Assembly (NCBI GenBank): GCA_046160785.1
Contig: JBJXHE010000017.1
Location: 8,038-72,037, forward strand
From: Planctomycetota bacterium
Lineage (GTDB): Bacteria > Planctomycetota > UBA1135 > JACQFD01
Length of the DNA stretch: 64,000 nt
Direction: 5' to 3'
The notes under the pieces are model-generated. The model worked only from the letters and a program-made list of their open reading frames with translations. It searched no databases and was not told the DNA's origin. A program made the position numbers and the translations under genes. Positions 10,812 through 55,717 of this stretch are shown in pieces. How positions within the stretch are numbered: the stretch's first letter is position 1; each line of letters begins with the position of its first letter.

Positions 10812-11018
10812 GTTATAATTAGCAGTAGTTATTTATTGTTAATGACTCCAGGGGACTTGATCGCGTCGTGTCACGCGTGCTCGCGCGCATAACCGTGGCG
10901 CCGGAGTATTAGTAAATACAGACGCGCCTGGACCACTGCCGCGGACGGCGATACGTAGCGGACCAAGGTCCGCTCCTTCATACGCGCCGTCATTAGATAT
11001 ATTAATAATGATGACGAC

Positions 11019-11054
11019 GGGGTCAGGCATTTCAATTAGGGGTGCCTGGCACCC
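11019..11054. repeat. Hairpin H1 (degenerate copy) at the inner end of the left palindrome arm
   Basis: GGGGTCAGGCAtttcaattaggggTGCCTGGCACCC. It has a 6-bp perfect core stem plus imperfect extension, and it is homologous to H2. Confidence 0.6.
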
Positions 11055-11117
11055 AATGGGACATAACTGTCGCTTTGCAGCCACAACTTCTTTATTAACA
11101 ACATTCTCAAATTTAGA

Positions 11118-11152
11118 GGGGTCAGGCACTCCTAATTAGGGTGCCTGACCCC
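11118..11152. repeat. Hairpin H2 (perfect 12-bp stem, 11-nt loop) at the inner end of the right palindrome arm
   Basis: GGGGTCAGGCAC-tcctaattagg-GTGCCTGACCCC. Confidence 0.8.
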
Positions 11153-11377
11153 AGGCTCCCGTTACTTAATCCGTCATTATTAATATTCCCGGTGGTGTAT
11201 CGCGAGCGCAGCGCGCCGTGGTGCGCGGAAGAAGGCGCTACGTATCGCCGAGCGCGGCAGTGGTCCAGGCGCGTTTGTAACAATTACTACATTTGCGCCG
11301 CGGTTTAGGCGCGCGAGCACGCGATACACACCGGGCCCTCGCGGGAGCGAGCTACTCACCGGGCCCCGGCGGGAGCC

Positions 11378-13750: not shown

Positions 13751-13805
13751 GGCATCCCTGCAAATTGTAAACATCCGTGGGAGACATCGAAGGGCCGGCC
13801 ACAAC

Positions 13806-30639: not shown

Positions 30640-31937
30640 TTGGTGCGAGGCATCAGATGATTTTTCAAGAATCGTTTAACTAAGAATCGAAAATTACTAA
30701 TCACCGGCCCGGTGTCGTTCCACGCGAATATGGGTTGTTTTGAACGCACCCACGACGCGACGCACGATGCTAACGATACGCGTTTCGCCGCGAGCGCCGC
30801 CAGGTTGCCATGTTTACGCTCGCGTTGATACCAAAAATAACCTTCGAGGTCAAAGTAAGGATACGCGCAGCCGACGTTTGTTTTGTAGTCATTCATTTTC
30901 GGAAGTTCGATTCCGAGCGCGTCGGCGTACGCCATTTCGCAGACGGGCGCGCCGCAATACTCTGCAAATTCAACGTACCACCATGGCCGGACATTTACTT
31001 CTAATAAACAAAAATTACCGTTGCGCGGATCGCGCTTGAATTCCGCGCTGAAGATTCCGCGATAGTTTAAATATGCAAACAATATCTTGAGATTGTTCAT
31101 CGCGGGCTCGACGAGATCCATCGCAATACTTTTCATATATGTACTATTTCCGAAATCGGCCGGGTACATGCGCAGGCGCTGCCGCGCGAACTGCGCGCGG
31201 ACGGCTCCGGTTCTATCAATAAAACCGTCAATGAAATAATGTTCGGTCGGCGGCCCCGGAATATACTCTTGCAGCAAAACATGAAATCCGGCTTTTTGTA
31301 GCTCGTTAAACTTTAAGATTGCTTCCGCTTTTGTTGATACATGCAATGCCTTTACTTTATATTGCTCGATGAAACGCGCCGAAGATCGCGGCTTCAAGAA
31401 CGCGCCGTGAAAACGCTTCTCATCCATTTCGTGCAACAATCCGGGGTCGTCGCTCACCACGGTCATTGGATGCGGCAATCCGAGCTGCGACATGACAGAC
31501 GCTAATTTTCCTTTGTCTAATAATATGGAAATCGTTTCGGGCGGCGCAAGAGATGTTAAAAATCTCTTTTTAAGATATTCGGGAATCGCGGCCGCCGCTT
31601 CCGTCCATGTGTCTGTACACGGAAAAAGAACTGCTCGTTCAAATGATAACGATCTCACTATGCTAATAAAACGATCAGTCGAAGCGCCCGGACTTTGAAA
31701 CTCCGCCGGGACGATCAGCGGTTTATAATACTTTGATTGGGTTACAAGATCGTTTGGATTTGTATAAACAAGTGTTTGTATTCCGCGGCGCGAAAGCGTT
31801 CGCAGCACTCCGAGCGCGGTGATACTTGTTCCAAATACAATGGCAGGAATATCGCAGCGTGAGGCGGCATTTGATCCCGAATTGTGAATTTGCGATTGCA
31901 AATGATCAAATTCTTTTCGCGACGATGACATAACCAT
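30636..31937 (-). CDS. ATP-grasp superfamily ligase (COG3919-like)
   Basis: LLQEYIPGPPTEHYFIDGF and FSAEFKRDPRNGNFCLLEVNVRPWW are typical of the ATP-grasp fold. The N-terminus has a Rossmann-like AIVFGTSITALGVLRTL. Confidence 0.65.
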   Translation of the reverse strand: MVMSSSRKEFDHLQSQIHNSGSNAASRCDIPAIVFGTSITALGVLRTLSRRGIQTLVYTNPNDLVTQSKYYKPLIVPAEFQSPGASTDRFISIVRSLSFERAVLFPCTDTWTEAAAAIPEYLKKRFLTSLAPPETISILLDKGKLASVMSQLGLPHPMTVVSDDPGLLHEMDEKRFHGAFLKPRSSARFIEQYKVKALHVSTKAEAILKFNELQKAGFHVLLQEYIPGPPTEHYFIDGFIDRTGAVRAQFARQRLRMYPADFGNSTYMKSIAMDLVEPAMNNLKILFAYLNYRGIFSAEFKRDPRNGNFCLLEVNVRPWWYVEFAEYCGAPVCEMAYADALGIELPKMNDYKTNVGCAYPYFDLEGYFWYQRERKHGNLAALAAKRVSLASCVASWVRSKQPIFAWNDTGPVISNFRFLVKRFLKNHLMPRTK

Positions 31938-32709
31938 TCACGAATCCATCGTCTTTCGAGAACGACCCAATAAACTTAGCAATTCCCTGAGTTGCGGCGC
32001 ATCCAATCCAAACAAAAGGCTTCGCAAACCAATGTAAAGAAACCGCGCCGTCGCGGCGAATTTCGCGTGCTCCGAGCCGGTAAATGGCGCGCGATGCGAT
32101 CGCGCCCGCGACCGTCGGAAAATTTCCGCGAGGCGAAATGCGTTCAACTTCAAAACCGGCCGACTTGAAAAGTTGTTGTAATCCGAACGGTGTAAATCTC
32201 CAAAAGTCATAGGGCGTTTGATGCAATTCAACCGCGAACGGAACAGTTAACAATACACGGCCGCCCGGTTTTAGTATTCTTCTGATCTCTTTTAATACAA
32301 CCATCGGCTCTGGAACGTGCTCGAGCACTTCGGTGCAAAGACAACTATCAAATATTTCATTAGCAAACGGAATTTCCTGCGCGTCGCCGAATGCATCAAC
32401 AATACCATTCAATCTTTTAAAGGAAACGCGCAGCGCATCTTCAACATTCATCACCGCGCCGGGATGTTCCACTCCATAATAATGTTCAATTGATGTAAAT
32501 AATGAAGCGTAAGGCCGGTCGCCGCAGCCGACGTCGAGCATCTTCCCTCGCATTGCGGGAGCTTCCGCCGCGATGCCTTTCCACAATAGTTGATGATCTA
32601 GAAAATAAGGATTAAATAAAGAATGTTTCCAAACAGCGCGAAGGCGCTTGCGGAAAGTTTTTCTAGGTGCGAGGGAGATTTCGTCGGGCACAGGGGGAGC
32701 ATAACTCAA
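31906..32709 (-). CDS. Class I SAM-dependent methyltransferase
   Basis: Motif I is MLDVGCGDRPY and post-I is FDSCLCTEVLEHV. It is the first gene of the 4-gene minus-strand operon and overlaps the ATP-grasp ORF by up to 32 nt. Confidence 0.75.
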   Translation of the reverse strand: MSYAPPVPDEISLAPRKTFRKRLRAVWKHSLFNPYFLDHQLLWKGIAAEAPAMRGKMLDVGCGDRPYASLFTSIEHYYGVEHPGAVMNVEDALRVSFKRLNGIVDAFGDAQEIPFANEIFDSCLCTEVLEHVPEPMVVLKEIRRILKPGGRVLLTVPFAVELHQTPYDFWRFTPFGLQQLFKSAGFEVERISPRGNFPTVAGAIASRAIYRLGAREIRRDGAVSLHWFAKPFVWIGCAATQGIAKFIGSFSKDDGFVNGYVIVAKRI

Positions 32710-36410: not shown

Positions 36411-38189
36411 TCACAGTCCGATCGTCTTGCAAAAACTGGGGTCGACGCTGGCCACTACGCGATTTCGAGCTTCCTTCAGACGCGGAGTATCTAATTCTTC
36501 TTTGATGCCGCCTTCGAGGGCCGCTGCGAGATGAAGCCTCGCCTCGTCGGCTTTTCCGAGCGCCGCTAACAAATGTGAATATACAAAACGCATTCGCGCG
36601 CCGCCTCGGCCCGTCTTCACAAGATCGTCTAACACAACAATTCCGAACGGCGCGCGTTTTTGATTTAATAATACAATTGAGTAATCGATTAACAATCGCC
36701 CCGTCGGGTTCAGCCGCGATGCAATTTGAATTTCAACAAGAGCGTCTTCATAACGTTCGAGTCGCGCAAGCAAATCCGCGGCGTCGAGGTGCGAGGCGGC
36801 GTTGTCAGGATCGAGTTGTATCGTTTCGCGCCGCGTCGCGAGCGCTTCTTCATAACGATTCCGATAAGCTAATAAACCCGATTTGATACCTAATGCTTCG
36901 ACGCAACGGGCGTCTTTTTCGAGCGCCTGGTTTGCTAATGATTCCGCTTCGGGTACGCGGCCGTATTCGAGATGCCACGACGCGACGCGCGCGAGCACGC
37001 GTGGATCGCCATTACAATTCCGCAGCGCTTCCAAATACCAACGTTCCGCTTCCTTCAATTCATTAAAATGTAACAATACGTCGGCGTACGCGAGCGCGAC
37101 CGTCGAATCCGACGGCGCTCGCTGCGCGGCAAGAGCGAGCGCGCTTCGAGCGGAATCATAACGATTTGCTTCGGCGAGCCGGCCCGCGCAAATGCACAAT
37201 ACGCGGCCCGACGCTGCGGGATGCGCGGCCGCCTTTTCTACAATTCGCACGGCATCGTCGTGCCGCTGGTCGCGATCATAAACTTTGAGAATGCCAAGAA
37301 TCGACGCCTCGTGGCCCGGGTCGATCGCAAGCGCGTAACGAAAGTAAGTTTCGCCTTCTGTTGCATTCCCGCGTGTTAATAATGATCCAATGGTAGCAAG
37401 CGTCAGCGGATCGGCCGGATCAATTTCGAGAGCCTTTCGTAACAATTCTTCGGCTTCCTTGGCGGCGCCTTGCTCGGCGAGAAACCGCGCGTAGTCACCG
37501 AGAAGGCGCGTCGAACGCGGATACTTCTCAATTCCTTTTCTTAGTATTTCAACCGCGTTCTTGCGGTCGCCTCGATCCACATAATATTTCGCGTGCCAGC
37601 CGAAAACGCGGTCGCTCGGAGAGCCCACTAAAAATGCTTGCTTAAATTCACGCTCGGCGGCTTCCGCGTTTCCAAGTTTATGTTGTAAATATCCGTAGTA
37701 TCCGCGCAGTTCGGGATCGTTCGGTAATTGTTGTAATACGATTTCGGCTTGAAGCGCCGCGTCCGCGAGCCGGCCGCACGCGCCGAGCACAATAGATAGT
37801 TCGAGCCGCGCGTCTATTGCATCGCGTGCATTACTTGTATTTGTTTTAGTATTTGTATTAGTATTATTAACGCTGTCGCTTGCTAATAAATTTTCAAGCA
37901 TCCGCAGAGCGTCGCTCGCGCGGCCAGTTCTTGTATAAATCGAAGCGAGCGCGACGGTGAGTCTAGGATGTTCATGATGCGCGGCGAGCGATCGCGCCAG
38001 GCGTTCTTCGGCCTCTTGTAAATTTCCGCGATCACGGTCGCGCTCTGCAAGCGCAATCACTACAGATGGCTCATCCGATGCTAATTTTTCGGCCCATCGC
38101 AGCGCGCGCTGGCCCGCGTGCGGCTCCGCCCGCGCGGCGCGCGTTGCGTCGGCATAACGAATCAGGAATTTTGCAATTGAGGTGCGCAC
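36411..38189 (-). CDS. Tetratricopeptide-repeat protein
   Basis: There are more than 12 TPR-like units (A..Y..AL..DP patterns) along 592 aa. An internal low-complexity stretch reads NNTNTNTKTNTSN. Confidence 0.8.
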   Translation of the reverse strand: MRTSIAKFLIRYADATRAARAEPHAGQRALRWAEKLASDEPSVVIALAERDRDRGNLQEAEERLARSLAAHHEHPRLTVALASIYTRTGRASDALRMLENLLASDSVNNTNTNTKTNTSNARDAIDARLELSIVLGACGRLADAALQAEIVLQQLPNDPELRGYYGYLQHKLGNAEAAEREFKQAFLVGSPSDRVFGWHAKYYVDRGDRKNAVEILRKGIEKYPRSTRLLGDYARFLAEQGAAKEAEELLRKALEIDPADPLTLATIGSLLTRGNATEGETYFRYALAIDPGHEASILGILKVYDRDQRHDDAVRIVEKAAAHPAASGRVLCICAGRLAEANRYDSARSALALAAQRAPSDSTVALAYADVLLHFNELKEAERWYLEALRNCNGDPRVLARVASWHLEYGRVPEAESLANQALEKDARCVEALGIKSGLLAYRNRYEEALATRRETIQLDPDNAASHLDAADLLARLERYEDALVEIQIASRLNPTGRLLIDYSIVLLNQKRAPFGIVVLDDLVKTGRGGARMRFVYSHLLAALGKADEARLHLAAALEGGIKEELDTPRLKEARNRVVASVDPSFCKTIGL

Positions 38190-38248
38190 GAAAAGTTTTC
38201 CGCGGCAATCTTATAACTTGCGAAATCTTCCTGTTCTCGCCGCGTCTC

Positions 38249-38276
38249 TCAACTCTATGGGGTTCGCGGTCGATGA
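38249..38276 (+). promoter_or_regulatory. Candidate sigma-28 (FliA)-type promoter upstream of motA
   Basis: TCAAC-N15-GTCGATGA is compared with the enterobacterial/Bacillus consensus TAAA-N15-GCCGATAA. It lies ~60 nt upstream of the motA ATG. The consensus for this phylum is unknown. Confidence 0.25.
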
Positions 38277-38334
38277 TCGGGTGCGCCAGCGGTTTCCGCG
38301 GGCGCAAACTCCGCCCTGCGTTATTGGAGAGACA

Positions 38335-39123
38335 ATGGACCTTGCGTCGATTCTGGGAATAATTGTAGCAATCGGAATGATCCTGCTCGGGCAGATCCTC
38401 GAAGGAGGACACCCTGGATCATTAATGCAAATAACAGCTTTTATTATTGTTATGGGCGGCACGGTCGGGGCCGTCATGGTGCATTGCACACTCGCCGATT
38501 TCTTGCGCGGACTCAAAATGGCGAAGGGCGTCTTTTTTGATAAGAAAATTCATATAGCACATACGCTCGAAGAATTAGTTAATTTAGCATCGCTCTCGCG
38601 CCGCGAAGGATTGATAGCGCTCGAATCTAAGATTTCCGAAATTAAAGATCCATTCTTAGCAAGAACGCTGGAGCACGCGGTCGACGGCGTTTCAGCTGTA
38701 GATTTGCGCAATTTGATGGAATCGGATTTGGAAATGGAAGACCGCCAATTGTTAAGTGGCGCTTCCGTATTTGAAACGGCCGGCGGATATGCGCCGTGCG
38801 TCGGAATTTTGGGCGCGGTGCTCGGACTTATTCACGTCATGGAAAACCTCGACGATCCGAGCAAGCTCGGCCCCGGCATCGCGGTCGCATTTGTTGCTAC
38901 AATTTACGGCGTCGGCGCGGCAAATTTATTTTTCTTGCCGATGGGAAGTAAACTAAAACGAAAGATACAAATAGAAGCTCTCGAAAAGCAAATGATCATC
39001 GAGGGCGTGTGCGCGATTATTGAAGGCGTGAACGCGAGCGTGATGAAAAAACGCTTACATTCGTTCGTGGCGCAGCTCGACCCGAAGGCGGCCGCCGAAC
39101 ACGCAAAGGAAGGGAAGAAGTAG
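38335..39123 (+). CDS. motA: Flagellar stator protein MotA
   Basis: ATG 38335 is preceded by GGAGAGA. The sequence MDLASILGIIVAIGMILLGQILEGG and the C-terminal TM3-TM4 plug region (GPGIAVAFVATIYGVGAANLFFLP) fit MotA. Confidence 0.85.
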   Translation: MDLASILGIIVAIGMILLGQILEGGHPGSLMQITAFIIVMGGTVGAVMVHCTLADFLRGLKMAKGVFFDKKIHIAHTLEELVNLASLSRREGLIALESKISEIKDPFLARTLEHAVDGVSAVDLRNLMESDLEMEDRQLLSGASVFETAGGYAPCVGILGAVLGLIHVMENLDDPSKLGPGIAVAFVATIYGVGAANLFFLPMGSKLKRKIQIEALEKQMIIEGVCAIIEGVNASVMKKRLHSFVAQLDPKAAAEHAKEGKK

Positions 39124-39154
39124 TCTTCACCGCGCGTGAATTAATAATAATATA

Positions 39155-39889
39155 ATGGGTAAGAAGAAGGGTCATAGCGAGGGACACGTGAACCACGAGC
39201 GATGGCTCGTTTCCTACGCCGATTTTATTACACTACTATTCGCGTTTTTTGTTGTTATGTACGCGATCTCAGACTTAAACTCACGCAAAGCGAAGCAAGT
39301 GTCTCAATCTGTAAAATTCGCAATGCACTTCGCGGGATCGGGCGGCACAAACGAAATTGGCATTTTCGGGGGAAAATCAATGGATAAGACTGCGCCTCAG
39401 AGCGGCGGCCAAGTGGGTTCGATGGAACAGTGGGTGCGCGAGTCGACGACGGTTTACGAATTCTTAGCAAAAGAATTAAAAGATGAATTAACAAAAACTG
39501 AGGAAACATCGCGAAAACTCGACGAACGCGGAGTTGTTATATCTCTTCCGGCGCGCTGGCTCTTCGAAACGGGTTCGACGCGAACGACGGAGAAAGCGGA
39601 AAAGTATCTAAAAACCATGCTCGAAGGTGCGAAAAAGTATCATAAAGACGTGATGATCGCGGGGCTCACGTCGCGCGTTCAATTCCCGGCAGGCTCCAAG
39701 TTTACAGATAGCACGTCGTTACAATTGGGAAGATTAGCGACATTGGAGCGAATGGTAGTGGATCAGCTACAATTCCCGGCGGACCGCGTGAAGGTAATGT
39801 CGGAAACTAACAAAAAGGCAGCGGGCGGATACGCGTCGCCGGCCCAGGTGGAGCGGGCAGCGTTGATTGAATTGATAATATTGAGATAG
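39155..39889 (+). CDS. motB: Flagellar stator protein MotB (divergent OmpA-like C-domain)
   Basis: RWLVSYADFITLLFAFFVVMYAIS contains the conserved Asp in the TM helix. The gene follows motA by 31 nt. Confidence 0.75.
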   Translation: MGKKKGHSEGHVNHERWLVSYADFITLLFAFFVVMYAISDLNSRKAKQVSQSVKFAMHFAGSGGTNEIGIFGGKSMDKTAPQSGGQVGSMEQWVRESTTVYEFLAKELKDELTKTEETSRKLDERGVVISLPARWLFETGSTRTTEKAEKYLKTMLEGAKKYHKDVMIAGLTSRVQFPAGSKFTDSTSLQLGRLATLERMVVDQLQFPADRVKVMSETNKKAAGGYASPAQVERAALIELIILR

Positions 39890-39971
39890 AGATTGCGGGT
39901 TGGGTTACATGGCGCGAGAAAGAGGCGCGGTCTCACTTCTTATAGCGAACGGAATTATGCTGATGTTAATG

Positions 39972-40098
39972 AACGCTCCCGCATAGCGCCGCTTCGGCGT
40001 AAATCCCCATGCTCGCTAAAACAAAACGCGACGCAAAGCGTCGCGTTTTATTTTGATGCTGCGCGGGAGACGCCTCCGCGGCGCTACGCGGGAGCGTT
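39972..40098 (+). repeat. Structured repeat element E1 (127 nt): long closing stem, two conserved 29-nt blocks, apical terminator hairpin
   Basis: The closing stem is AACGCTCCCGCaTAGCGCCGC / GCGGCGCTAcGCGGGAGCGTT, 21 bp with one A-C mismatch. Blocks 39995-40023 and 40051-40079 are identical to the E2 blocks. The apical hairpin AAAACGCGACGC-aaa-GCGTCGCGTTTT+ATTTT spans 40023-40054. Confidence 0.8.
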
Positions 40099-40134
40099 AG
40101 TTTACAGTTAGCCACACAGTGCGTGAATGAGAGA

Positions 40135-40164
40135 AACGGGGACAATCCCCGTTATTTTTTATTT
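40135..40164 (+). terminator. Intrinsic-terminator-like hairpin T1 facing rightward transcription
   Basis: AACGGGG-acaat-CCCCGTT is followed by ATTTTTTATTT. The T-run overlaps stop TAA (40159-40161) of the minus-strand orphan gene. Confidence 0.5.
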
Positions 40165-40929
40165 AAACCACGAAATATCATGTCGAAGGTCGCTGTTATA
40201 AATCTTCTGGTAGGCGTCAGCGATGCGCTGTTGCGACATTGAATCGTTAGTCCACTCGTATTCGCGTATTAGATACTCTCTCGGAACAATATACTTAAAG
40301 CACTGAATCGTTTGTGAATACTCGTCTCGAGCGTTCGCATCTTCGCTAGTAACGTGATCGATACAATTCTTTATCCAAAACAAGATCAATAAATTCACGA
40401 TTAATGATATAATGAATGTGAGGGTCGCACTCAACGCCAGAATTCGAATCCAACGAGTCCGTTGCGTATCAACTAAATTCTTGAATCTCCTCACCGCATT
40501 TACAAGAAGAACAATGATCACTATCATAACGACGCAGACGAGTGCGAGAGGTACGATAAACAACAAAGGGGAATTCGCGGTGCCGCCCAGCACAAATAGA
40601 TATCCAATTATTAAGATTGGCAGATAGGGGAGGGCCGCTAACAAAACTAGACACTCAACGGATAACAGGAAGCAATCACACGCGAGGCTCATCAACGCAT
40701 ATCTTCCGTTTGCAATGAAAGACAGCATCGATAACGCCGGATACAAAATTATCAAAAAATATAATCCAGGTCGAATATCTAACATCACCCGAAAATCGAT
40801 GGAACCTTGTTTTATTAATATAGGATCCAGGAACAACAAGACCGAAGAAACAAAGCAAGCGGCCAGGCACTGAAGTAATAACTTATTTTTAACAGCAAAG
40901 AAGTGCAACTTCTCAGTGAGTCGTTGCAT
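40159..40929 (-). CDS. Orphan polytopic membrane protein (about 6 TM helices + ~70-aa soluble C-terminus), AT-richer than its neighbours
   Basis: The ORF is 256 aa with an ATG start. Six hydrophobic segments can be read by eye. I recognise no family. The DNA is visibly AT-richer than the flanking genes, but this was judged by eye and not computed. Confidence 0.55.
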   Translation of the reverse strand: MQRLTEKLHFFAVKNKLLLQCLAACFVSSVLLFLDPILIKQGSIDFRVMLDIRPGLYFLIILYPALSMLSFIANGRYALMSLACDCFLLSVECLVLLAALPYLPILIIGYLFVLGGTANSPLLFIVPLALVCVVMIVIIVLLVNAVRRFKNLVDTQRTRWIRILALSATLTFIISLIVNLLILFWIKNCIDHVTSEDANARDEYSQTIQCFKYIVPREYLIREYEWTNDSMSQQRIADAYQKIYNSDLRHDISWFK

Positions 40930-40960
40930 TGGCGTTACTCGCGACTGTTAGTTAACAGAA

Positions 40961-40988
40961 CGATAAAAGAACGGGGACAGTCCCCGTT
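40961..40988 (-). terminator. Terminator-like hairpin T2 facing leftward transcription, upstream of the orphan gene
   Basis: The plus strand reads AACGGGG-acagt-CCCCGTT (40970-40988). On the minus strand the hairpin is followed by CTTTTATCG. T2 is 18/19 identical to T1. Confidence 0.45.
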
Positions 40989-41027
40989 CTTCCTGGTGTC
41001 ACCTTCTTCACTCATAATTGCTATTAA

Positions 41028-41151
41028 AGCTCGGGGCGTCGCGCTGCGGAGGCGTCTCCCGCGCAGCATCAAAACAACAGATTGCGCGTAGCGCGATCTG
41101 TTGTTTTAGCGAGCATGGGGATTTACGCCGTAGCAGCGCGATGCCCGAGCT
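41028..41151 (-). repeat. Structured repeat element E2 (124 nt), an inverted copy of E1
   Basis: Read on the minus strand, the stems are AGCTCGGGCaTCGCGCTGC ... GCAGCGCGAcGCCCCGAGCT. They pair but differ in sequence from E1. Blocks 41102-41130 and 41046-41074 are exact reverse complements of the E1 blocks. The 17-bp apical hairpin is at 41071-41107. E2 overlaps the stop codon at 41150-41152. Confidence 0.8.
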
Positions 41152-42130
41152 ATCCTTCGTCATCCGTCATCGCTCTTCCCGCCGCCGCGACCACCGGATC
41201 TGGATAATTACCATAACGGCGTTCCATGCGGGCGTCCATGTCGGTTTCGGCCAGCGCGACGAGGCCGCCGAAGCGGCCGGCTCGTAAACATTCGCGAACG
41301 ATAACGATCAGTTGAGTTAACAAAAACAGAACTGTTATATTAAGATACGTCGCTTCGCCGGCGCTTGCGAGTTCGACGCACCACGCGAGTCCGTAAAGTA
41401 ATATTAATTCCAGCGCGAACGGGATGATTCCGGCGGTAAGCGCGGAGAGCGGGCGGCGGAAGAATAAGGATGTTCCGTGAAGCGCCGCCATGAACGCGCT
41501 GCGGCCTCCGCGAACGGCGATCGACGCGCGGCCGAGGTCGGATACTAAAATAATAAATGCAACGCTCAGCGCGAAGCCGGCCGTTTGTATATTTACAAAT
41601 AAATTAGCGGAGCCTTCCGTGGCAAATTCGCGGAGTTCGGTGGAATCGGAATCGGTCAGAAATTTTTGTAGTGATTCAAAGGGCAGGCCGTAAAAAATCC
41701 AGCGTGCCGCGCCGATGGCCGCGAGCGATAATATTGCAAGCCGCAGAAAGCGTACAAAACGCGCTCCGCCGCCCGAACAGAATGCTTTTAATCCCGCGCG
41801 CGCGTTGCGTTCGTGGCGGTGTACTAATATTTCGAGCCACCCGCCCGTTGAAAACAATCCTAACAAAAACGCGCCCAGGATCGACGCGAGCAGCGCCGGT
41901 TCCGCCGTTTGTAACTTATCGCGCAAGTCGAAGAAAATTGTATATTCCAACTCCGGGCCGAGAATGGAGGGGTCGGCGCGGTGCAGGGTGCTCGCCCCGA
42001 AGGCGCGGCCAAACGTTAGCGCCGCCGGAAGCGCGAGCGCAAAATAACCTAAACACAACGCTAATAAAATTCGGCCGCGAACCGATGCATACAATATTGA
42101 GCCGAAGACGCCTTCAAGCACGCGCTTCAT
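41150..42130 (-). CDS. Polytopic membrane protein of unknown function, translationally coupled to the M1 peptidase
   Basis: The 326-aa protein has several long hydrophobic segments. Its start overlaps the peptidase stop by 4 nt (42127-42130). Confidence 0.6.
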   Translation of the reverse strand: MKRVLEGVFGSILYASVRGRILLALCLGYFALALPAALTFGRAFGASTLHRADPSILGPELEYTIFFDLRDKLQTAEPALLASILGAFLLGLFSTGGWLEILVHRHERNARAGLKAFCSGGGARFVRFLRLAILSLAAIGAARWIFYGLPFESLQKFLTDSDSTELREFATEGSANLFVNIQTAGFALSVAFIILVSDLGRASIAVRGGRSAFMAALHGTSLFFRRPLSALTAGIIPFALELILLYGLAWCVELASAGEATYLNITVLFLLTQLIVIVRECLRAGRFGGLVALAETDMDARMERRYGNYPDPVVAAAGRAMTDDEG

Positions 42131-47701: not shown

Positions 47702-48451
47702 TCATACCTCCGCCGCCTCTGCGGCCTGCGCCGGCTCCATGATGGATCGTAAGTGTACAATTGCGCGCGCGTGAATTTGCGATGCGCGGGATTCTGAGAA
47801 TCCCATCACTTCCCCGATCTCTTTTAATAGTAAACTCTCCGCGTAATATAAAGTTATCACCTGCCGCTCAACTTTCGGTAATTGTGCAATTGCTTGGGCC
47901 AGTTTTGCTCGCAGTTCATTTTGCGCGGCGATGTTCGACGGATCGGCCTCTTTTGATGATTTTAACAATGCGCCGATTCCCGAATCGTCCGATGGATTAT
48001 CATCAATCGAGACGACCTGCGCGGTGTGATGTGCTAATAATGCTTCGTCGAGTTCTTCTGTAGTAAGTCCCGTTTCCTCAGCGAGTTCTTCAGGGCTTGG
48101 CGGCCGCCCTTCGCGCTGTTCAATTTTCCGGCGCGCGTTCTCAATTAAACGATAACGATCGCGGCGCGTGCGCGGCAGGAAATCTAATCTTCGCAATTCA
48201 TCAAGAATAGAACCGCGAATATGAATATAAGCATGCGTCGAAAACGCGGTTCCGCGAGAAACATCATACGTTTGAACCGCGCGCCACAGTCCGATCGCGC
48301 CCCACGCGCACAGATCATCGCGGTCGAGCGTCGGCGGCAGATCGATTGCTAATCTTCCGACGACAAATTTTACTAACAAAAGAGAATCTTCAAATCGCTT
48401 TTGCATCTGCTCCGGAGTTGTCATTTCCGCGTAGGCGTCCGCGCGTGCCAT
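47702..48451 (-). CDS. fliA: Flagellar sigma factor sigma-28
   Basis: The 249-aa protein has sigma-70 regions 2, 3 and 4 (DDLCAWGAIGLWRAVQTYD..., region 4 ESLLLKEIGEVMGFSESRASQIHARAI). It follows flhF-flhG. Confidence 0.9.
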   Translation of the reverse strand: MARADAYAEMTTPEQMQKRFEDSLLLVKFVVGRLAIDLPPTLDRDDLCAWGAIGLWRAVQTYDVSRGTAFSTHAYIHIRGSILDELRRLDFLPRTRRDRYRLIENARRKIEQREGRPPSPEELAEETGLTTEELDEALLAHHTAQVVSIDDNPSDDSGIGALLKSSKEADPSNIAAQNELRAKLAQAIAQLPKVERQVITLYYAESLLLKEIGEVMGFSESRASQIHARAIVHLRSIMEPAQAAEAAEV

Positions 48452-48735
48452 CAGATGTTTCCTCCGGGCTTTGTTATCTTAACAGAAGCGGCCGGCGCCT
48501 CGGGCGTCGCGCTTTGTGTAGTATCCAGCGCGCGTTCTAATAAATTATATAATATTGGCACAATGCACACGATTGCTAATGCTGAGATGAGTCCGCGAAA
48601 AGCCGCGGTCCACTCGGTGGTTCCGTTGAGTAGTGAAAGCCCGGCCGCGAGGGCGAAGGCGCCCGCCGACGTCCTGGCAACGACTACTTGGCGCGGCGGT
48701 AACATCGCTGGCCAATTTCGTCGCTTTAGATCCAT
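48451..48735 (-). CDS. Small membrane protein between flhG and fliA
   Basis: The 94-aa protein has two hydrophobic segments. Its stop overlaps the fliA ATG (TGATG, 1-nt overlap) and its start overlaps the flhG end by 10 nt. Confidence 0.5.
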   Translation of the reverse strand: MDLKRRNWPAMLPPRQVVVARTSAGAFALAAGLSLLNGTTEWTAAFRGLISALAIVCIVPILYNLLERALDTTQSATPEAPAASVKITKPGGNI

Positions 48736-49616
48736 TCGCTTGAGGACGCGGGCGCGGCTAATTGAATTGTTGTAACCGCATTTGTAACTCTTCCTGCGAG
48801 CAGCCTTAACGCGGCGGCCGCGGATGAACCCGGCTCCGCAAGGACGAGGGGCTTGCGGGCGGCGGTCGCTCGCGTCACGGCCGCGTCGCGCGGAATCCAG
48901 CCAAAAGATTCAATTTGCGAACCGAGAAAGCGCCCGACAACTGCTACAAATCGCTCGGCGAGCTGGCGCGCTTCGACCGGGCCCGGAGCTTCATTAACAA
49001 TAAGTCCGATTTTTGTTAATGGCGCGCGTGTGTGCGCAATCTTAACAACTGCGTACGCGTCCGCGATCGACGCGGGGTCGGGCGTCGCGACGACAAGTAA
49101 TAAATCCGCGGTGTGCGCGATCGCGAGTCCGTCCTGATGAATTCCGGCCGGAAGATCAAATATAGCAATATCGCGCGACTCGGCGCCTTTGTTAATCATC
49201 GAAAGAATCGCAGAACGTTTTGTTACATCGAGCTGCGCGTAGTTTTCAATTCCGCGCGGCGCGAGAAGCACGTCCACGCCCGATGGGCCGCGCACGACGA
49301 GTTGTTCCACGCTGCGATTAGAAGTGATGCCGTGGCTTAAATTATAATTTCGCGGGAGATTTAATATTGCATCGAGCGAGGAAAGCCCAAAATCACAATC
49401 AACTAATAATATTTTAGGAGCGATGCCGCGGCGCACGCCGCGCGCGAGCGCGACTGCAAGATTCGCCGCAATGGTTGATTTCCCGACGCCGCCCTTTCCG
49501 CCCGTCACACCGATTCGGGGCGTCCGGCGCGAGCGCGCCGGTTGATACATTTGAATGGTATCAACAGGATTGTTAATTAATAATAGTGAATCGGCTTGCG
49601 TGGGCATGTTAAACAT
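48726..49616 (-). CDS. flhG: MinD/ParA-type flagellar number regulator FlhG
   Basis: The deviant Walker A is GVTGGKGGVGKST. It lies downstream of flhF. Confidence 0.85.
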   Translation of the reverse strand: MFNMPTQADSLLLINNPVDTIQMYQPARSRRTPRIGVTGGKGGVGKSTIAANLAVALARGVRRGIAPKILLVDCDFGLSSLDAILNLPRNYNLSHGITSNRSVEQLVVRGPSGVDVLLAPRGIENYAQLDVTKRSAILSMINKGAESRDIAIFDLPAGIHQDGLAIAHTADLLLVVATPDPASIADAYAVVKIAHTRAPLTKIGLIVNEAPGPVEARQLAERFVAVVGRFLGSQIESFGWIPRDAAVTRATAARKPLVLAEPGSSAAAALRLLAGRVTNAVTTIQLAAPASSSEWI

Positions 49617-50625
49617 TCGCTCGAGCCGCTTCCGCGCTCGCCTTTAAGATAAAATGAGCCGCGCGCTCGCCGGTCGCGCGTTCGAGATCGCCAGGCACTT
49701 CCTGCCCTGTACACAAAAACGCTAAAGGTAATTTTTGTTCGAATGCAACAGTTATCGCGGGCCCGCAATGTTCTGTTTCATCGAGTTTTGTAATCACCAA
49801 ACCCGTGGGCTTCGTTGCCTGGAATTCACGCGCCGCGGAGCGGACGGATTCGAGCGATTGCGTCGCGGATAATACTAATAATGTTTCGAGCCGCTCCGCG
49901 TGTCCGAGCGTTGACGCGAGCTCGGCCAGGCGCTCGGCGTCGTTCGGGCTGCGGCCCGTTGTATCAATTAAGATAATATCACAATCCCGATACTTCTCCG
50001 GCGCTCGTATCAAATCCGCGGGTGTAAATAATACACCAAACGGCGCGGCGAGCATGTCGGCGTACGCCCTCAGCTGCTCGACCGCGCCGATTCGATATGT
50101 ATCAAATGTGAGCAATGCAACTTTACGTTTCGACTGGCGCGTGAGCCGCCCGGCGAGTTTAGCAATCGTCGTCGTCTTTCCGACGCCGGTCGGCCCCACC
50201 AATGCAACTAATCGCGGGCCGCTGGCGTGCGGCGGGCGCGATGGCAAGATTGGAATCTGGTTTGCTAATGTTAGTGATGCAGCGTCGAAGGCTAATGTTC
50301 CTCCGTGCGGAGCGGCCGCGGCGAGTGCAAGACTGCGCAGGTCGCCCGTGATTCCCGCGCTGCGCAGCCGTTCGTTCAAGTCCTGCAGGCCCGCGGGCGC
50401 ATTCGACTCAAAATTAGCAATTCGCGCGCGCAGCAATTTTAACTCTTGCTGTATCGCTAATGATTCTCCGCCGGAGCCCGTTCGCGCGAAATTGTTAACA
50501 ACGACAAGCTCGACGCCGTCCGCCGTCGCGCGCGTTGTTAATATTCGAGCCTGGTCGCCCAGCTCTTCACGCGCGAGCAGCAGCGCCTCGCGAGCGGACG
50601 GAGCAAAAAAGCTGCGCACTCTCAT
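49609..50625 (-). CDS. flhF: SRP-type GTPase FlhF
   Basis: The G-domain motifs are VALVGPTGVGKTTTIAKLA, DTTGRS and ITKLDE. The N-terminus is FlhF-like (MRVRSFFAPSAREALLLAREELG). Confidence 0.85.
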   Translation of the reverse strand: MRVRSFFAPSAREALLLAREELGDQARILTTRATADGVELVVVNNFARTGSGGESLAIQQELKLLRARIANFESNAPAGLQDLNERLRSAGITGDLRSLALAAAAPHGGTLAFDAASLTLANQIPILPSRPPHASGPRLVALVGPTGVGKTTTIAKLAGRLTRQSKRKVALLTFDTYRIGAVEQLRAYADMLAAPFGVLFTPADLIRAPEKYRDCDIILIDTTGRSPNDAERLAELASTLGHAERLETLLVLSATQSLESVRSAAREFQATKPTGLVITKLDETEHCGPAITVAFEQKLPLAFLCTGQEVPGDLERATGERAAHFILKASAEAARANV

Positions 50626-52766
50626 TAGTTAACTCCCACCATCGCTAACGATTCGACGGATTTCGCGGACTGCGCTTCTTGATACGAAAGCACTGGAACG
50701 CGCGGCGCGCTTGGAATTAATAGATCGCGCACGAATTTACGAATATTTCCGCGCACGAGCACGACGGGTTCGCGACCCGATTTGGAAGATGCAGAAGCAG
50801 AATTAACAATTTGATCGACGACGCGCTTGAGTTCGGTCGCCGTCGGAGCGTCGGCGTTTGGATTTGTTAACATCGATGAAATGCGGGCTTCCACCGCAGG
50901 GTCGAGCGTAATGGCAAAGATCTTTCCGTCGCCGCCCGCGACGCGCTCGCAAATTCCGCGGCCAAGCGCCGTTCTTACAATTTCGGTGAGGCGGTCTGTA
51001 TCTTTAGTTTGCGCGCCGTGGTCGGCGAGCGTTTCTAATATTTGCGGCAGATGTTTAATAGAAATGCGCTCGCGCAGCAGATTCTTCAATACTTTTTGGA
51101 TCTCGCCGATTGTTAATATTCCCGGCACAAGTTCTTCGACGACAGCGGGGGATTTCTTTTTAATAGTTTCGAGGAGATGCTTCACGTCGTCGCGGGTGAT
51201 CACTTCGTGCGCGTGGCGGCGCAGCAGTTCTGTAACGTGTGTCACCAGCACAGAGACCGGCTCAATTAATGTATATCCTAACAATTCCGCGTCCTGGCGC
51301 TGGGCCGCTGGAATCCATTTCGCGGGAAGCCCGAAGACGGGCTCTGTTGTAGCAATTCCCTGAATGGGCTTTGCGCGTCCCGACGGATCCATCGCTAATA
51401 AATGGCCAACCATCAATCGGCCCGCGCCGACTTCCTCGCCGTTGACTAAGATTCGATACGCGTTCGGGTCGAGCCGCATATTATCTAATATTCGAACGGG
51501 CGGTACTACAAATCCTTCGGTCGAGGCAAACTGCCTTCTTAACATTGCAATATGATCTAATATTCCCGCGCCATTGCCGGGGTCGACGAGTGGAATTAAA
51601 CGATAACCGACCTCCGCGCTGAGACGGTCGACTTGTAACAGATCGTCAACCTTCTTCGGATCGGCGTGTTCCGCCTCGGCTCCCTTTGCGTTAGCATTCG
51701 CGTCGGCTCCGTGGCCTTTCTTGCCTTTCGCGGTGCCTTTCGCATGTGTAGTATTCGCGGCGCCTTCATTTTCATACAATTGTTCGACGCTGCGCGTTTG
51801 ATTATAAAATATATAACAAACCGCTGCGAGCGCGACGAACGGTAACATGGGTATTCCGGGCAGCAGAGCGATGCCGCAGAGAACCGCCGCAGTTGTTAAG
51901 ATCGCGCGAGGATGGCTGAGAAAGGGCAAAGCCATTTCCTTCGAGAGCCGGGCTTCCATCGCTGTTTTTGTTACAATGACGCCCGACGCAGTGGAAATTA
52001 ACAATGCGGGAATCTGGCTCACGAGGCCGTCGCCAACGCTAAGAACCGCGTAACGCTGAACGGCTTCTCCGAGCGGGCGGCCGTCCATCAGCACACCTAT
52101 CAATACTCCGCCGACGAGATTAATTATTGTAATTAACAATCCCGCGATCGCGTCTCCGCGAACAAATTTGCCGGCGCCGTCCATCGCGCCGTAGAACTCG
52201 GCTTCTCTACCAATAATTTCTCGCCTCGAGCGCGCTTCTTCGCCTGTGATCAATCCGGCATTCATGTCGGCGTCGATCGCCATTTGTTTTCCGGGCATGG
52301 CGTCGAGAGTGAATCGCGCCGCAACTTCGCTGATTCGATTGCTACCTTTCGTAATAACTACAAATTGAATGACGAGCAGAATTGCAAATACAACAAGTCC
52401 AATAATAATATTCCCGCCGACGACAATTTTACCAAACGCGTCGATGAGGTCGCCCGCATGGCCGGTCGACAGGATGCTGCGCGTCGATGCGACGTTGATG
52501 CCGAGGCGCGCCAAAGTTGTAAAAAGAAGCAGCGTTGGAAATGTTGCAAACTCGAGTGCTTTGCGCGTATTTAATGAAATGAGCAATATGCCGACGCTGA
52601 GCGCAATATTGCATGCAATCGCGAAATCTAATATGAGCGGCGGCAGCGCCGCGACGAGTACGACGAGAATGGATATAACAAATCCGCCGAGCAGCCAATC
52701 GCCGTGCTTCAGCACTCCGCGCGCGAGCGGCTTCAGCGACGATTCGATTTGAAGCGAGGTCATCAT
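50625..52766 (-). CDS. flhA: Flagellar type III export gate protein FlhA
   Basis: The 713-aa protein has the conserved TM domain, the FHIPEP-like region (FVRGDAIAGLLITIINLVGG) and a cytoplasmic C-domain. Confidence 0.95.
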   Translation of the reverse strand: MMTSLQIESSLKPLARGVLKHGDWLLGGFVISILVVLVAALPPLILDFAIACNIALSVGILLISLNTRKALEFATFPTLLLFTTLARLGINVASTRSILSTGHAGDLIDAFGKIVVGGNIIIGLVVFAILLVIQFVVITKGSNRISEVAARFTLDAMPGKQMAIDADMNAGLITGEEARSRREIIGREAEFYGAMDGAGKFVRGDAIAGLLITIINLVGGVLIGVLMDGRPLGEAVQRYAVLSVGDGLVSQIPALLISTASGVIVTKTAMEARLSKEMALPFLSHPRAILTTAAVLCGIALLPGIPMLPFVALAAVCYIFYNQTRSVEQLYENEGAANTTHAKGTAKGKKGHGADANANAKGAEAEHADPKKVDDLLQVDRLSAEVGYRLIPLVDPGNGAGILDHIAMLRRQFASTEGFVVPPVRILDNMRLDPNAYRILVNGEEVGAGRLMVGHLLAMDPSGRAKPIQGIATTEPVFGLPAKWIPAAQRQDAELLGYTLIEPVSVLVTHVTELLRRHAHEVITRDDVKHLLETIKKKSPAVVEELVPGILTIGEIQKVLKNLLRERISIKHLPQILETLADHGAQTKDTDRLTEIVRTALGRGICERVAGGDGKIFAITLDPAVEARISSMLTNPNADAPTATELKRVVDQIVNSASASSKSGREPVVLVRGNIRKFVRDLLIPSAPRVPVLSYQEAQSAKSVESLAMVGVN

Positions 52767-52786
52767 TTGTTATTTCTTCGCTGCTT

Positions 52787-53869
52787 TTATCGGCGAACGC
52801 CCCGGCGCAACCGGAATATAAATGCCAAAACTTCCGCGACGGCTTTATACAAATCCATCGGGATCGCGATTCCAACTTCGGCGGATTTGTAAAGTGCGCG
52901 CGCGAGCGGGGGATTTTCAACAATCGGGACGCCCGCTTCCGTTGCGATTTCGCGAATTTTCTTAGCTATCAAATCCTGGCCTTTCGCAACGACGATCGGC
53001 GCGTCGTCCGCGGGTTCGAGCCCGCCCGGCCTTCTGTAACGAAGCGCGACGGCGAAGTGCGTTGGATTTGTTATAACTACAGTTGCGGTTGGAACGTCGG
53101 CGAGCATTTTCCGCTGCGCCGCGGCGCGTTGCGCTTTCCGGATGCGCGCTTTAATCGCGGGGTCGCCCTGCGCTTGTTTATTTTCATCTTTTACTTCTTC
53201 TTTAGTCATGCGCATGTCGCGGCTGAACTGCCAGCGTTGATACAAAAAATCGAGCCCGCCGACGAGCAGCGTTGCCATCGCGATTCTAAATAATAATGAA
53301 AACGCGAGCGACGCGCCGGTTCCAAAACTTGCGCGCAGCGGCGCGCGCCCGAGCGTTAGCATCTGTCCTATCAAATCACCGCTCGCCGCATATACAATTC
53401 CAATAATGAACGCTAATTTCAAAAGTGCGGTTGAAAGCTGCACCAGCGACCGCGGCGAGAAGAGGCGCTTCATGCCAGTCGCCGGATCCATGCGCTCAAA
53501 CTTTAAATCTAACGTTTCCGTGCGCAGCCGGAAGCCCACTTGAAGATATGCAATAATCGCAGCGGAGCCGACCAGCCCCGCAAGCATCGGAAGCGCCGCG
53601 GGAGCGATTCGATTTGCGATTTGTACTAAATGACTACTGATCATGCTGAGGTCGACGTCGCCGCGCGGCACGCCCGCGAGAGTGTCGCGCAGGAAGTCTT
53701 GTAATACTAAGAATATCGGAGCTCCGGAAAGTCCGACAAGCCCGAGCCCGATCAATAACAAAACGGATTGTGATAATTCGGAACTGTATGCAACTTGCCC
53801 TTTGTTGGCCGCATCATCGAGCCGTTTGCCAGAGGCCTCCTCGGTACGTTGATCTTGATCGCCTGCCAT
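52787..53869 (-). CDS. flhB: Flagellar export switch protein FlhB
   Basis: The N-terminus reads QDQRTEEASGKRLDDAANKGQV. The NPTH autocleavage site is present (VVITNPTHFAVAL). Confidence 0.95.
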   Translation of the reverse strand: MAGDQDQRTEEASGKRLDDAANKGQVAYSSELSQSVLLLIGLGLVGLSGAPIFLVLQDFLRDTLAGVPRGDVDLSMISSHLVQIANRIAPAALPMLAGLVGSAAIIAYLQVGFRLRTETLDLKFERMDPATGMKRLFSPRSLVQLSTALLKLAFIIGIVYAASGDLIGQMLTLGRAPLRASFGTGASLAFSLLFRIAMATLLVGGLDFLYQRWQFSRDMRMTKEEVKDENKQAQGDPAIKARIRKAQRAAAQRKMLADVPTATVVITNPTHFAVALRYRRPGGLEPADDAPIVVAKGQDLIAKKIREIATEAGVPIVENPPLARALYKSAEVGIAIPMDLYKAVAEVLAFIFRLRRGVRR

Positions 53870-53896
53870 TGAATTATTATATTATCAACAAAAATA

Positions 53897-54682
53897 TTAT
53901 TGAATGCCCGGCAATGCTTCAAAAAGCGCGCTTCGCATCAATTCAAATAACGATTCGAGCCCGATGCGCAGCGCCGGTAACAATAACGCAAGTGCGCCGA
54001 GTGCCGCGGCGACTCGGAGCGCGTAGCCCGAGTCGAGAATGTTTAATTGTGGAACCGCGCGCGAAACGACTCCCAACAGAACTGTTACAACAAACATTGC
54101 AATCATAATCGGCGCAGCGAGCGCAACGCCCGCCTCGATGAATCGCGTTAATATTTGTATTAGTCCCGCGATCGGATCGGGCCCGAAATCAAATGTTCCG
54201 ACGGGAATCTTATGAAATGAATGGGCGAGGCCGGCGACGATCCACTCGTGCGCGCCAAGTGTAATAAAAATGAGCCCCGCGATGGTTTGATAAAGAGTTG
54301 TTATAACCGGCGAACTCGTTCCGCTGACCGGGTCGAGCGTCGCCGAAAGGTTAAGACCCATTTCTGTTGTAACTAATTCGCCGGCGACGCGCACGCCCGC
54401 GAAGGCGCATGCAATGATCCACCCGAGCAGCGCTCCTACTAAAAACTCGCGCGCGACGAATGGTATGATTGCCAATCCTAACGATGGGCCCGTCCACTCG
54501 GGCGCCTTCACCGCGGGCATTAATACTATTGTGATCGCCACGCCGAGCGCCATTTTGTAGCGATTGAATCCGCCCGAGCCCGTGAAGAGCGGCGCCGTGG
54601 AAATGAGGGCGAGCACGCGTGTTAAGAATAACACGGCGTATTCAATCTTGACGGGAAATATATAAGTTAAAAATTCGTACAC
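53897..54682 (-). CDS. fliR: Flagellar export gate protein FliR
   Basis: The 261-aa polytopic protein sits between fliQ and flhB. Confidence 0.9.
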   Translation of the reverse strand: MYEFLTYIFPVKIEYAVLFLTRVLALISTAPLFTGSGGFNRYKMALGVAITIVLMPAVKAPEWTGPSLGLAIIPFVAREFLVGALLGWIIACAFAGVRVAGELVTTEMGLNLSATLDPVSGTSSPVITTLYQTIAGLIFITLGAHEWIVAGLAHSFHKIPVGTFDFGPDPIAGLIQILTRFIEAGVALAAPIMIAMFVVTVLLGVVSRAVPQLNILDSGYALRVAAALGALALLLPALRIGLESLFELMRSALFEALPGIQ

Positions 54683-54700
54683 GGATTTCGCTTCGATTGA

Positions 54701-54976
54701 TTATTTTACAGATGCGTAGCGCGGCAGCTCCCGAAGCAGGTGGGCCGTATAATTAACAACCTTTCCCATGCCCCACGGAAATACGAGCAACGTCACTGCG
54801 AGCACCGCGATCATTTTCGGAACGCTCGCGAGCGTTTGTTCATGAACGGCGGTGACGGTTTGCAGGATTGCTACAATTAAGCCGACGACGAGCGCGGTCG
54901 CGAGCATGGGTAGACTTACCAATAACGCGAGAATGAGAAGTTCGCGGCCGAGGTCGAGAACGAGCGTTGAATTCAT
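54701..54976 (-). CDS. fliQ: Flagellar export gate protein FliQ
   Basis: The 91-aa protein has two TM helices and a typical FliQ sequence (LLVGLIVAILQTVTAVHEQTL). Confidence 0.9.
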   Translation of the reverse strand: MNSTLVLDLGRELLILALLVSLPMLATALVVGLIVAILQTVTAVHEQTLASVPKMIAVLAVTLLVFPWGMGKVVNYTAHLLRELPRYASVK

Positions 54977-55006
54977 CAGATTAATTATGTTATACTTGTG
55001 GTTTAT

Positions 55007-55717
55007 TTATACTTGAACCGATTCGACGAGGGAGCGAATGACGAGATTCCATCCGTCGACGAGAACAAATAACAATACTTTGAGCGGCGTCGAGATCATC
55101 GTCGGCGGCAACATAAACATTCCCATGGATAGCAATACCGCTGAGACGACGAGGTCGATTAGAATAAACGGCAGGAAAATTAAGAATCCCATCGTGAACG
55201 CCGTCTTGATTTCGCTCATTAAGAACGCGGGAACTACAATTCGAAGTTCGAGGTCTTGTTTATTATTAGGCTTTGCTGTTCCGGAAATATCAACAAAAAG
55301 CTGCAGATCCGAGTCGCGCGTATGGTGCAGCAGAAATCCTTTAATAATCGTGCTGCCTTCCATGCCCGCTTCCTTGAGCGAGACCTTCCCTTCCGAATAC
55401 GGCACGATCGCTTTATCATAAACCTGCGACGCCGTCGGATACATAATAAATAATGTTAAGAATAGCGACAGCCCCATGAGCACTTGATTCGGCGGCAATT
55501 CTTGAATCGCGATGGCGCGGCGCACGAACGAAAGAACAATGATGATTCTCGTAAAGCATGTAACAGATACGAGAATTGCCGGCAGCAGCGAAAGTAATGT
55601 TAATACGGCCGCCATCTCGAGCGGCGCGGGAAGCCGTCCGGGCTGGGCGAGCGCATCGCCGGCTTTTGCCATCGCGTCGACAGCGGGGTTTTGTAAAATG
55701 CTCAATAACGCAATCAT
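55007..55717 (-). CDS. fliP: Flagellar export gate protein FliP
   Basis: The sequence shows conserved FliP motifs (FTRIIIVLSFVRRAIAIQELPPNQVLMGLSLFLTLFIM; PFILIDLVV). Confidence 0.95.
   Translation of the reverse strand: MIALLSILQNPAVDAMAKAGDALAQPGRLPAPLEMAAVLTLLSLLPAILVSVTCFTRIIIVLSFVRRAIAIQELPPNQVLMGLSLFLTLFIMYPTASQVYDKAIVPYSEGKVSLKEAGMEGSTIIKGFLLHHTRDSDLQLFVDISGTAKPNNKQDLELRIVVPAFLMSEIKTAFTMGFLIFLPFILIDLVVSAVLLSMGMFMLPPTMISTPLKVLLFVLVDGWNLVIRSLVESVQV

Follow-up and report, generated by a model that had tools for sequence, protein, structure and literature searches.

A lineage-specific insertion carrying an orphan membrane-protein gene between inverted hairpin arms at the motB junction of a Planctomycetota genome

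How does a single gene come to lie between two convergent operons with an inverted copy of the same hairpin module on either side of it? The question is raised by a contig of a Planctomycetota bacterium (JBJXHE010000017.1, assembly GCA_046160785.1, positions 8,038 to 72,037), analysed here as a stretch of 64,000 nt and referred to as the window. Between motB and an M1-peptidase operon, this DNA holds a 256-aa orphan membrane-protein gene, the cargo, enclosed by two inverted arms. Each arm consists of a long rod-shaped hairpin (E1 on the left, E2 on the right) and a shorter terminator-like hairpin (T1 and T2). We found that five related lineages are empty at the same junction, that the arms carry invariant cores amid stems which vary but remain paired, and that the cargo has distant homologs of matching length. 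The reading we favour, at a probability of roughly 0.5, is that the ~1.2-kb insert is a non-autonomous, transposase-less, inverted-repeat-bounded gene cassette, or the relic of one, whose arms would terminate incoming transcription.

An insertion at the motB junction

The original prediction, made from the sequence alone, had proposed the order E1, T1, coding sequence, T2, E2. Repeat search, alignment and open reading frame (ORF) calling reproduced this layout, positions included. The features are given below; R1 is a covariance model built from E1 and E2.

39155-39889, plus strand: motB, the left neighbour, full length (Pfam MotB_plug, 1.1e-20; MFN0205079.1)
39890-39963, no strand: 74-nt spacer from the motB stop codon to E1, with a weak hairpin at 39922-39934
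39968-40166, plus strand: left inverted arm (E1, spacer and T1), as aligned locally, with gaps, to the reverse complement of 40952-41157
39972-40098, plus strand: E1, a 125-nt rod hairpin with a stem reaching 39964-40106 (R1 148 bits; local inverted repeat 39964-40000 / 40070-40106)
40018-40054, no strand: E1 apical hairpin, preceded by an A-tract and followed by a T-tract, terminator-like on both strands (-21.4 kcal/mol)
40135-40164, plus strand: T1, a hairpin plus T-run of the intrinsic-terminator type, set against rightward transcription and located 5 nt past the orphan gene's stop codon
40159-40929, minus strand: cargo gene, 256 aa, with ~6 transmembrane (TM) helices and a helical tail of ~65 aa, one of a four-member family
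40945-40958, no strand: near-palindrome CTGTTA-GT-TAACAG (CTGTTAGTTAACAG), 15 nt upstream of the orphan ATG and overlapping the inner end of the right arm
40952-41157, minus strand: right inverted arm (T2, spacer and E2), from gapped local alignment
40961-40988, minus strand: T2, a terminator-like hairpin set against leftward transcription, separating the peptidase operon from the orphan gene's start
41026-41153, minus strand: E2, an inverted copy of E1 (R1 149 bits), abutting the TAG stop of the 326-aa gene
41071-41107, no strand: E2 apical hairpin, unlike the E1 apex in sequence but alike in shape and in its A/T flanks
41150-42130, minus strand: gene for a 326-aa membrane protein, the right neighbour, which closes the M1-peptidase operon (MFN0205080.1)

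The junction was compared in contigs carrying peptidase orthologs at 55-69% identity. All of them keep the peptidase, a gene of 318-324 aa, convergent motB and motA, a TPR gene and lpxD. In five lineages the junction is empty, with stop-to-stop gaps of 20 bp (L001 and L002), 29 bp (L003), 6 bp (L012) and 37 bp (L014). Both flanking proteins keep their ends in the window: MotB terminates in ...IELIILR* against ...IDLIILR* in L001, and the 326-aa protein in ...GRAMTDDEG*, identical to its relatives. Since the gaps in relatives are near zero and both flanking C-termini are conserved, the comparison identifies at least ~1,220 of the 1,260 nt between the flanking stop codons as added DNA, a lineage-specific insertion. 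The 74-nt spacer beyond motB may also belong to the insert, because the whole gap measures 6-37 nt in relatives.

Two more lineages, in which the peptidase is 63% identical to that of the window, carry inserts at the same junction, of 1.98 kb (L010) and 0.9 kb (L011). We found no DNA or protein similarity among the three inserts, and long inverted arms occur in that of the window only. The gene is thus not universal at this interval. The motB junction appears to be a recurrent site of variable content, for which an empty ancestral state is the simplest reading.

The L010 insert (11303-13282 of JACQFD010000039.1, GCA_016200225.1) includes an ORF of 384 aa that is AT-rich and matches no known family (11682-12836, minus strand), a GC-rich hairpin of ~175 nt near 13055-13230 and a 113-nt rod hairpin at 11413-11525, oriented to the peptidase operon as E2 is. 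This rod scores 29 bits with R1, mostly from structure. It lacks the shared cores and was rejected as a member of the E family, being treated here as an analogue. The L011 insert (11276-12176; Logan SRR14271370) holds three small ORFs (99, 94 and 54 aa) and has, at 11658-11675 and 11972-11989, the two halves of an inverted repeat of 18 nt (94%).

The inverted arms and their hairpins

A repeat search found an ungapped inverted repeat of 122 nt, 39968-40089 against 41036-41157, with 80% complementarity. Under gapped alignment the mirror similarity runs on beyond E through the spacer and the T hairpin, giving arms of ~200 nt each. From outside to inside, each arm is composed of the 125-nt E rod, a gap of ~30-40 nt and a short GC-rich T hairpin with a U-tail. 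E1 and E2 share two exact blocks, as originally proposed, although these measure 30 and 29 nt and not 29 nt each. Two 26-mers taken from these cores each occur at the E1 and E2 sites only in the 64-kb window, where shuffled sequence gave an expectation of 0.

Both elements fold into the same unbranched rod, at -84.5 kcal/mol for E1 (z -10) and -75.4 kcal/mol for E2 (z -7). Each forms a hairpin by itself, ~125-143 nt long, and possesses a terminal inverted repeat of 37 nt. The two differ at 28 of 128 positions, all of them in the outer stem and tip and none in the two cores. Identity outside the cores is 59%, and under an even spread of differences such clustering has P ~1e-9. Pairing is maintained: among the 47 pairs of the consensus, 9 have both bases replaced and none has lost its pairing. 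The invariant 30-nt and 29-nt cores form the bulged middle of the rod, where the two blocks are only loosely complementary and the asymmetric bulges are preserved exactly. The tips of E1 and E2 are unrelated palindromes, both of them hairpins with A and T tracts on their flanks.

Judged from these two copies, the divergence is unlike the uniform decay of a recent duplicate. The pattern indicates either constraint on shape and core sequence or arms derived from different members of a family. With two sequences, maintenance of a palindrome in DNA and selection on an RNA would be indistinguishable.

T1 (40135-40153) and T2 (40970-40988) are identical at 18 of 19 positions and face transcription coming from the neighbouring operons, as had been proposed; they are the only two such hairpins in the 64-kb window. 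T1 is predicted to be a good intrinsic terminator for rightward transcription (-15.2 kcal/mol, tail AUUUUUUAUUU). On the minus strand, T2 is predicted to form a 13-bp stem (-19.6 kcal/mol) followed by the U-rich tail UUAUCGUUCU. The near-palindrome beside T2 had been put forward as an operator 16 nt upstream of the ATG. It is present, at 15 nt, and could be an operator, its significance being marginal and its chance expectation not negligible.

Two short ORFs cross the E elements, one of 72 aa (39893-40111, plus strand) and one of 51 aa (41008-41163, minus strand), and have LRRKSPCSLKQ...FDAARETPP in common. These are the mere translation of the invariant cores and not genes. The outermost bases of the arms resemble the last codons of the 326-aa gene; we dismissed this as chance, because those codons are conserved in relatives.

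R1 recovered E1 and E2 only in the window, the next score being 16 bits, and E elements therefore do not follow other operons here. A 21-mer of core 1 gave one chance match among the GTDB representative genomes, in Fructilactobacillus and without E structure, and a 19-mer gave two in the JGI metagenomes, both inside coding sequence. Neither E core matched IMG/VR, and blastn found no match among plasmids and phages. Against Rfam, the E region reached at best 23.7 bits where the gathering cut-off is 270; only a tRNA passes in the window.

Pfam scans of 20.3-54.7 kb, including the cassette itself, found no transposase, recombinase, integrase or Y1 (RAYT) gene. The scanned part is a flagellar and housekeeping neighbourhood. 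The window regions 47702-56469 and 38182-39889 form a flagellar/motility cluster encoding a MinD/ParA-type ATPase, an SRP54-type GTPase (FlhF-like), FlhA (FHIPEP), FlhB, FliR and MotAB, together with a sigma factor that is probably FliA, as read from its Sigma70 domain matches.

The cargo gene

The 771-nt cargo ORF occupies nearly all of the 785 nt between the arms. Hydropathy analysis gave ~6 hydrophobic segments followed by a charged tail of ~65 aa, and family searches recognised nothing, both as originally described. An HMMER scan of 1.84 billion representative proteins returned three homologs, at 2.6e-13 (P0121), 4e-5 and 5e-4. These proteins (P0121, P0122 and P0123) are 255-261 aa long and have the same hydrophobic layout and a conserved C-terminal stretch. 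The calculated chance of a 256-codon ORF in DNA of 41% GC is ~1e-7 per frame position. Because three distant homologs match it in length and such an ORF is improbable by chance, the sequence comparison identifies the cargo as a genuine gene belonging to a very small family, to which a profile search added no members.

The accessions of the neighbouring proteins (MFN0205079.1 for MotB, MFN0205080.1 for the 326-aa protein and MFN0205081.1 for the M1 peptidase) are consecutive, and the exact cargo sequence is absent from a collection of 15 billion proteins. The public record therefore lacks a protein annotation for the cargo. Searches against Pfam, NCBIfam, PADLOC, PHROGs and PDB sequence profiles, and tblastn on plasmids, were negative or far below cut-offs. 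An AlphaFold2 model built from the four sequences was poor (predicted local distance difference test 57.6), with only the tail modelled at fair confidence, and Foldseek of this model against the PDB gave no match below E 0.2. The earlier suggestion of an immunity, abortive-infection or envelope factor thus found no support in sequence or fold searches. We commit only to a predicted inner-membrane protein whose helical tail would be cytoplasmic or periplasmic.

The contexts of the homologs are unrelated. The best of them, P0121 (24% identity), is encoded at 5065-5850 of L005 (JACQFD010000015.1, GCA_016200225.1), a different contig of the same metagenome-assembled genome (MAG) as L010. It follows genes for a Reprolysin-like protein of 1051 aa and a 288-aa protein, with a Transposase_20 gene ~9.5 kb away. 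A context shared with the cargo, of a metallopeptidase and a gene of ~290 aa, was considered and rejected, as those two proteins are not homologous to the neighbours in the window. No E-like repeats were found around P0121 in L005. The gene for P0123 (L013 126-1581; Logan SRR24270834) and an ECF sigma-factor gene diverge from each other, 77 nt apart, a hint that in some cases membrane proteins of this family might be sigma-linked.

The cargo had been thought AT-richer than its neighbours, and at a GC content of 0.414 against 0.525 for the window it is the lowest of the 42 window genes. Writing its amino-acid sequence back into DNA by the codon usage of the window gave an expected GC content of 0.442, where 0.415 was observed (z -2.3); at third codon positions the expectation was 0.530 and the observed value 0.484 (z -1.5). 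Some three quarters of the deficit stems from hydrophobic amino-acid content, and native syntenic genes deviate more, down to z -3.75 (31906-32709). Composition is for these reasons weak support for a foreign origin, an inference that the codon-usage simulation weakened.

Origin of the insert

Transcripts of motAB and of the peptidase operon would each meet an E-then-T module in the sense orientation and stop there. The arms would then act as terminators for both neighbouring operons and as insulators for the cargo. The unit would have come in as a cassette that has inverted repeats at its ends and no transposase, much like mobile insertion cassettes (MICs). Invariant cores amid varying but always-paired stems point to a protein partner that binds DNA or RNA by both sequence and shape, perhaps the enzyme by which the cassette was once moved in trans.

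In logic, the closest known systems appear to be MICs and composites bracketed by MITEs (miniature inverted-repeat transposable elements). In MITE composites, two copies of the element flank a gene or an integron, with 5-bp target duplications and known parent insertion sequence (IS) families. The window likewise has two non-coding inverted-repeat copies around its cargo which could be moved together in trans, but neither a target duplication nor a parent IS was found for it. MICs have inverted repeats on both sides, a passenger gene and no transposase, and usually a target duplication (PMC3913671). As in MIC231 of Bacillus cereus, mic-qnrD and mic-qnrS2, the window unit is enclosed between a pair of inverted repeats, lacks a transposase, carries one passenger gene, measures ~1.2-1.5 kb and lies in otherwise conserved DNA. 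By contrast, MIC ends are IS-type repeats of ~24-50 bp whilst the window arms are structured hairpins of ~200 nt. The window also differs in that no target duplication, parent IS or second copy was found and in that the termini of the arms are less conserved than their middle.

Several results weigh against the cassette reading. No target-site duplication was found when all plausible pairs of ends were compared, with the left boundary uncertain by ~75 nt; the longest flanking match was 4 bp, which is chance level. R1 found no third E copy in the window or in 14 loci (relatives and chance matches, L001-L012 included). The idea of a delivered cassette thus stands as regards insertion into a junction that is empty in five lineages, and not as regards mobility. 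The outermost bases of the arms are less conserved than their middle, and classical IS ends are much shorter and less structured than these arms. A promoter scan found no sigma-70-type promoter for the cargo on its strand, and T2 lies only ~30 nt upstream of its ATG. Because codon usage of the cargo is near native, the insertion is either old or from a similar genome. In the peptidase, the closest relative available shares just 69% identity.

A second nested inverted repeat occupies 10868-11329, in the convergent gap between ORFs 8898-10811 (plus strand) and 11378-13804 (minus strand). Complementarity between its outer arms of ~95 nt (10868-10960 and 11236-11329) is 81-88%, and the space between them holds two palindromic hairpins of 35 nt, GGGGTCAGGCA...TGCCTGACCCC, at 11019-11053 and 11118-11152, with no ORF. 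As single-stranded DNA it folds at -155 kcal/mol (z -15). Its sequence is unrelated to E and T by R1, but its architecture is like that of the E/T cassette. Beyond it and the cassette arms, the window has no long, well-matched inverted repeat, and of seven convergent junctions the two widest are those with such structures. Since the same build recurs at another convergent junction, this modestly favours the existence of long-armed foldback elements in this genome. The window also contains a 50-nt near-perfect palindrome at 5699-5748 (TAGGGACAGGTTAGGGGACAGGT ... ACCTGTCCCCGGGACTGTCCCTA), between two co-directional genes of ~760 aa, which is probably a terminator.

A bolder form of the cassette reading would make E/T-bounded units an undescribed class of hairpin-ended, transposase-less cassettes in Planctomycetota. 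In this form a structure-specific enzyme acting in trans would read the 30-nt cores and deliver the units into convergent junctions, and 10868-11329 would be another product. The L010 and L011 inserts at the motB junction may be products as well, but long inverted arms are confined to the window insert. We regard this extension as unlikely.

The alternative that survives best is a local origin of the arms, which is possible though we think it unlikely. The gene would have entered by illegitimate or homologous recombination after horizontal transfer, and a host terminator consisting of E and T would then have been duplicated in inverted orientation, so that both operons kept one. Such an origin agrees with the lack of a target duplication and of any further E copy in the searches made, and with incoming transcription meeting one and the same module, in sense orientation, at either arm. 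It is also consistent with the relatives: at the empty sites there is almost no room between the genes for terminators, and the two other inserts at this junction have no long inverted repeats. Duplication followed by neutral drift does not, however, predict 59% identity outside the cores and 100% inside them (P ~1e-9), nor two unrelated apical palindromes, and the second nested inverted repeat with the same layout elsewhere in the window also argues against it. To our knowledge there is no mechanism that would place an inverted copy exactly beyond a gene. Bidirectional intrinsic terminators do occur between convergent genes, the known examples being single short hairpins. The window hairpins resemble these in their A-tract and U-tract, in their position at a convergent junction and in the scores of the E1 apex on both strands, but form duplicated 200-nt modules around a gene.

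It is improbable that the E elements belong to a dispersed family like REPINs or MITEs, two members of which landed independently beside an unrelated inserted gene, wide convergent gaps being tolerant of repeats. In REPINs, the spacer or tip varies in sequence but always pairs and the core of the arm is conserved (PMC3337134). Each E is likewise an imperfect extragenic hairpin of ~125 nt, complete with its own terminal inverted repeat; its arm blocks are conserved, its tip varies but stays paired, and the element is terminator-like and located between convergent genes. E1 and E2 moreover resemble different members of a family and not a fresh duplicate. Tagged repetitive extragenic palindromes (REPs) are defined by a GTAG or CGTC head followed by a short palindrome (PMC3733652). 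Reading E1 and E2 against this definition, we found no such head beside a 20-40-bp palindrome, and their arm blocks are asymmetric, unlike near-identical inverted REPs. REPINs reach high copy number, whereas the 64 kb holds two E copies, both in one 1.26-kb gap, for which we estimate a chance of ~2% given ~45 intergenic gaps. T1, T2 and the spacers are duplicated together with E in the same mirror order, and REPINs do not enclose genes as mirror pairs with a second hairpin. The scans of 20.3-54.7 kb also gave no Y1/RAYT gene.

We assign a similarly low probability to the E and T modules being RNA genes, either small RNAs or regulatory RNAs of the 3' untranslated region. They would form two paralogous rods of ~190 nt ending at T, with the cores as protein-binding or base-pairing sites. 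The strong folding of both copies, the nine compensatory pairs with none broken, the invariant cores and a sense-oriented intrinsic terminator at the end of each module would all suit an RNA. The Rfam score fell far below cut-off (23.7 against 270 bits), no promoter was found and the other genomes searched gave no homologs. Maintenance of a palindrome in DNA accounts equally well for covariation seen in two sequences only.

It is very improbable that the arms are recombination sites that flip the gene between motAB-sense and peptidase-sense orientation, a proposal that is compatible with the other explanations. As in invertons, inverted repeats flank the segment, and arms of ~200 nt with two identical stretches of 29-30 nt enclose the whole gene. 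There is no invertase or other recombinase within ~20 kb, and arms of 80% identity are a poor substrate for homologous recombination. Mirror symmetry would also place a flipped gene behind an equivalent terminator, with little regulatory effect. An integron cassette was rejected as a further candidate. The attC sites of integrons all have one orientation and E1 and E2 are inverted; there are no RYYYAAC or GTTRRRY core sites at the E1 and E2 borders, and the scans of 20.3-54.7 kb gave no integrase.

An assembly artefact or chimera, which might be suspected of an uncalled ORF in a MAG contig, is scarcely credible, given that both junctions join cleanly to intact conserved gene ends, that the ORF has real homologs and that an assembler with the usual final k-mer sizes would not be misled by exact repeats as short as these (at most 30 nt).

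What the locus means depends on the nature of the arms. If they are only duplicated terminators, this is an ordinary lineage-specific orphan gene in a permissive intergenic gap. If they are the true ends of an element, as in the cassette reading, a single gene would have moved without a transposase, short IS-type ends or a target duplication. Annotation pipelines and finders of mobile elements would miss such cassettes, and the NCBI pipeline left this gene uncalled. The E rod, with its invariant cores and freely varying paired stems, is a clean test case for a recognition site specific in both sequence and shape. For the entry of small orphan genes in Planctomycetota, the junction between motB and the gene of 32x aa offers a natural set of comparisons: it is empty in five lineages, and three others have each filled it differently.

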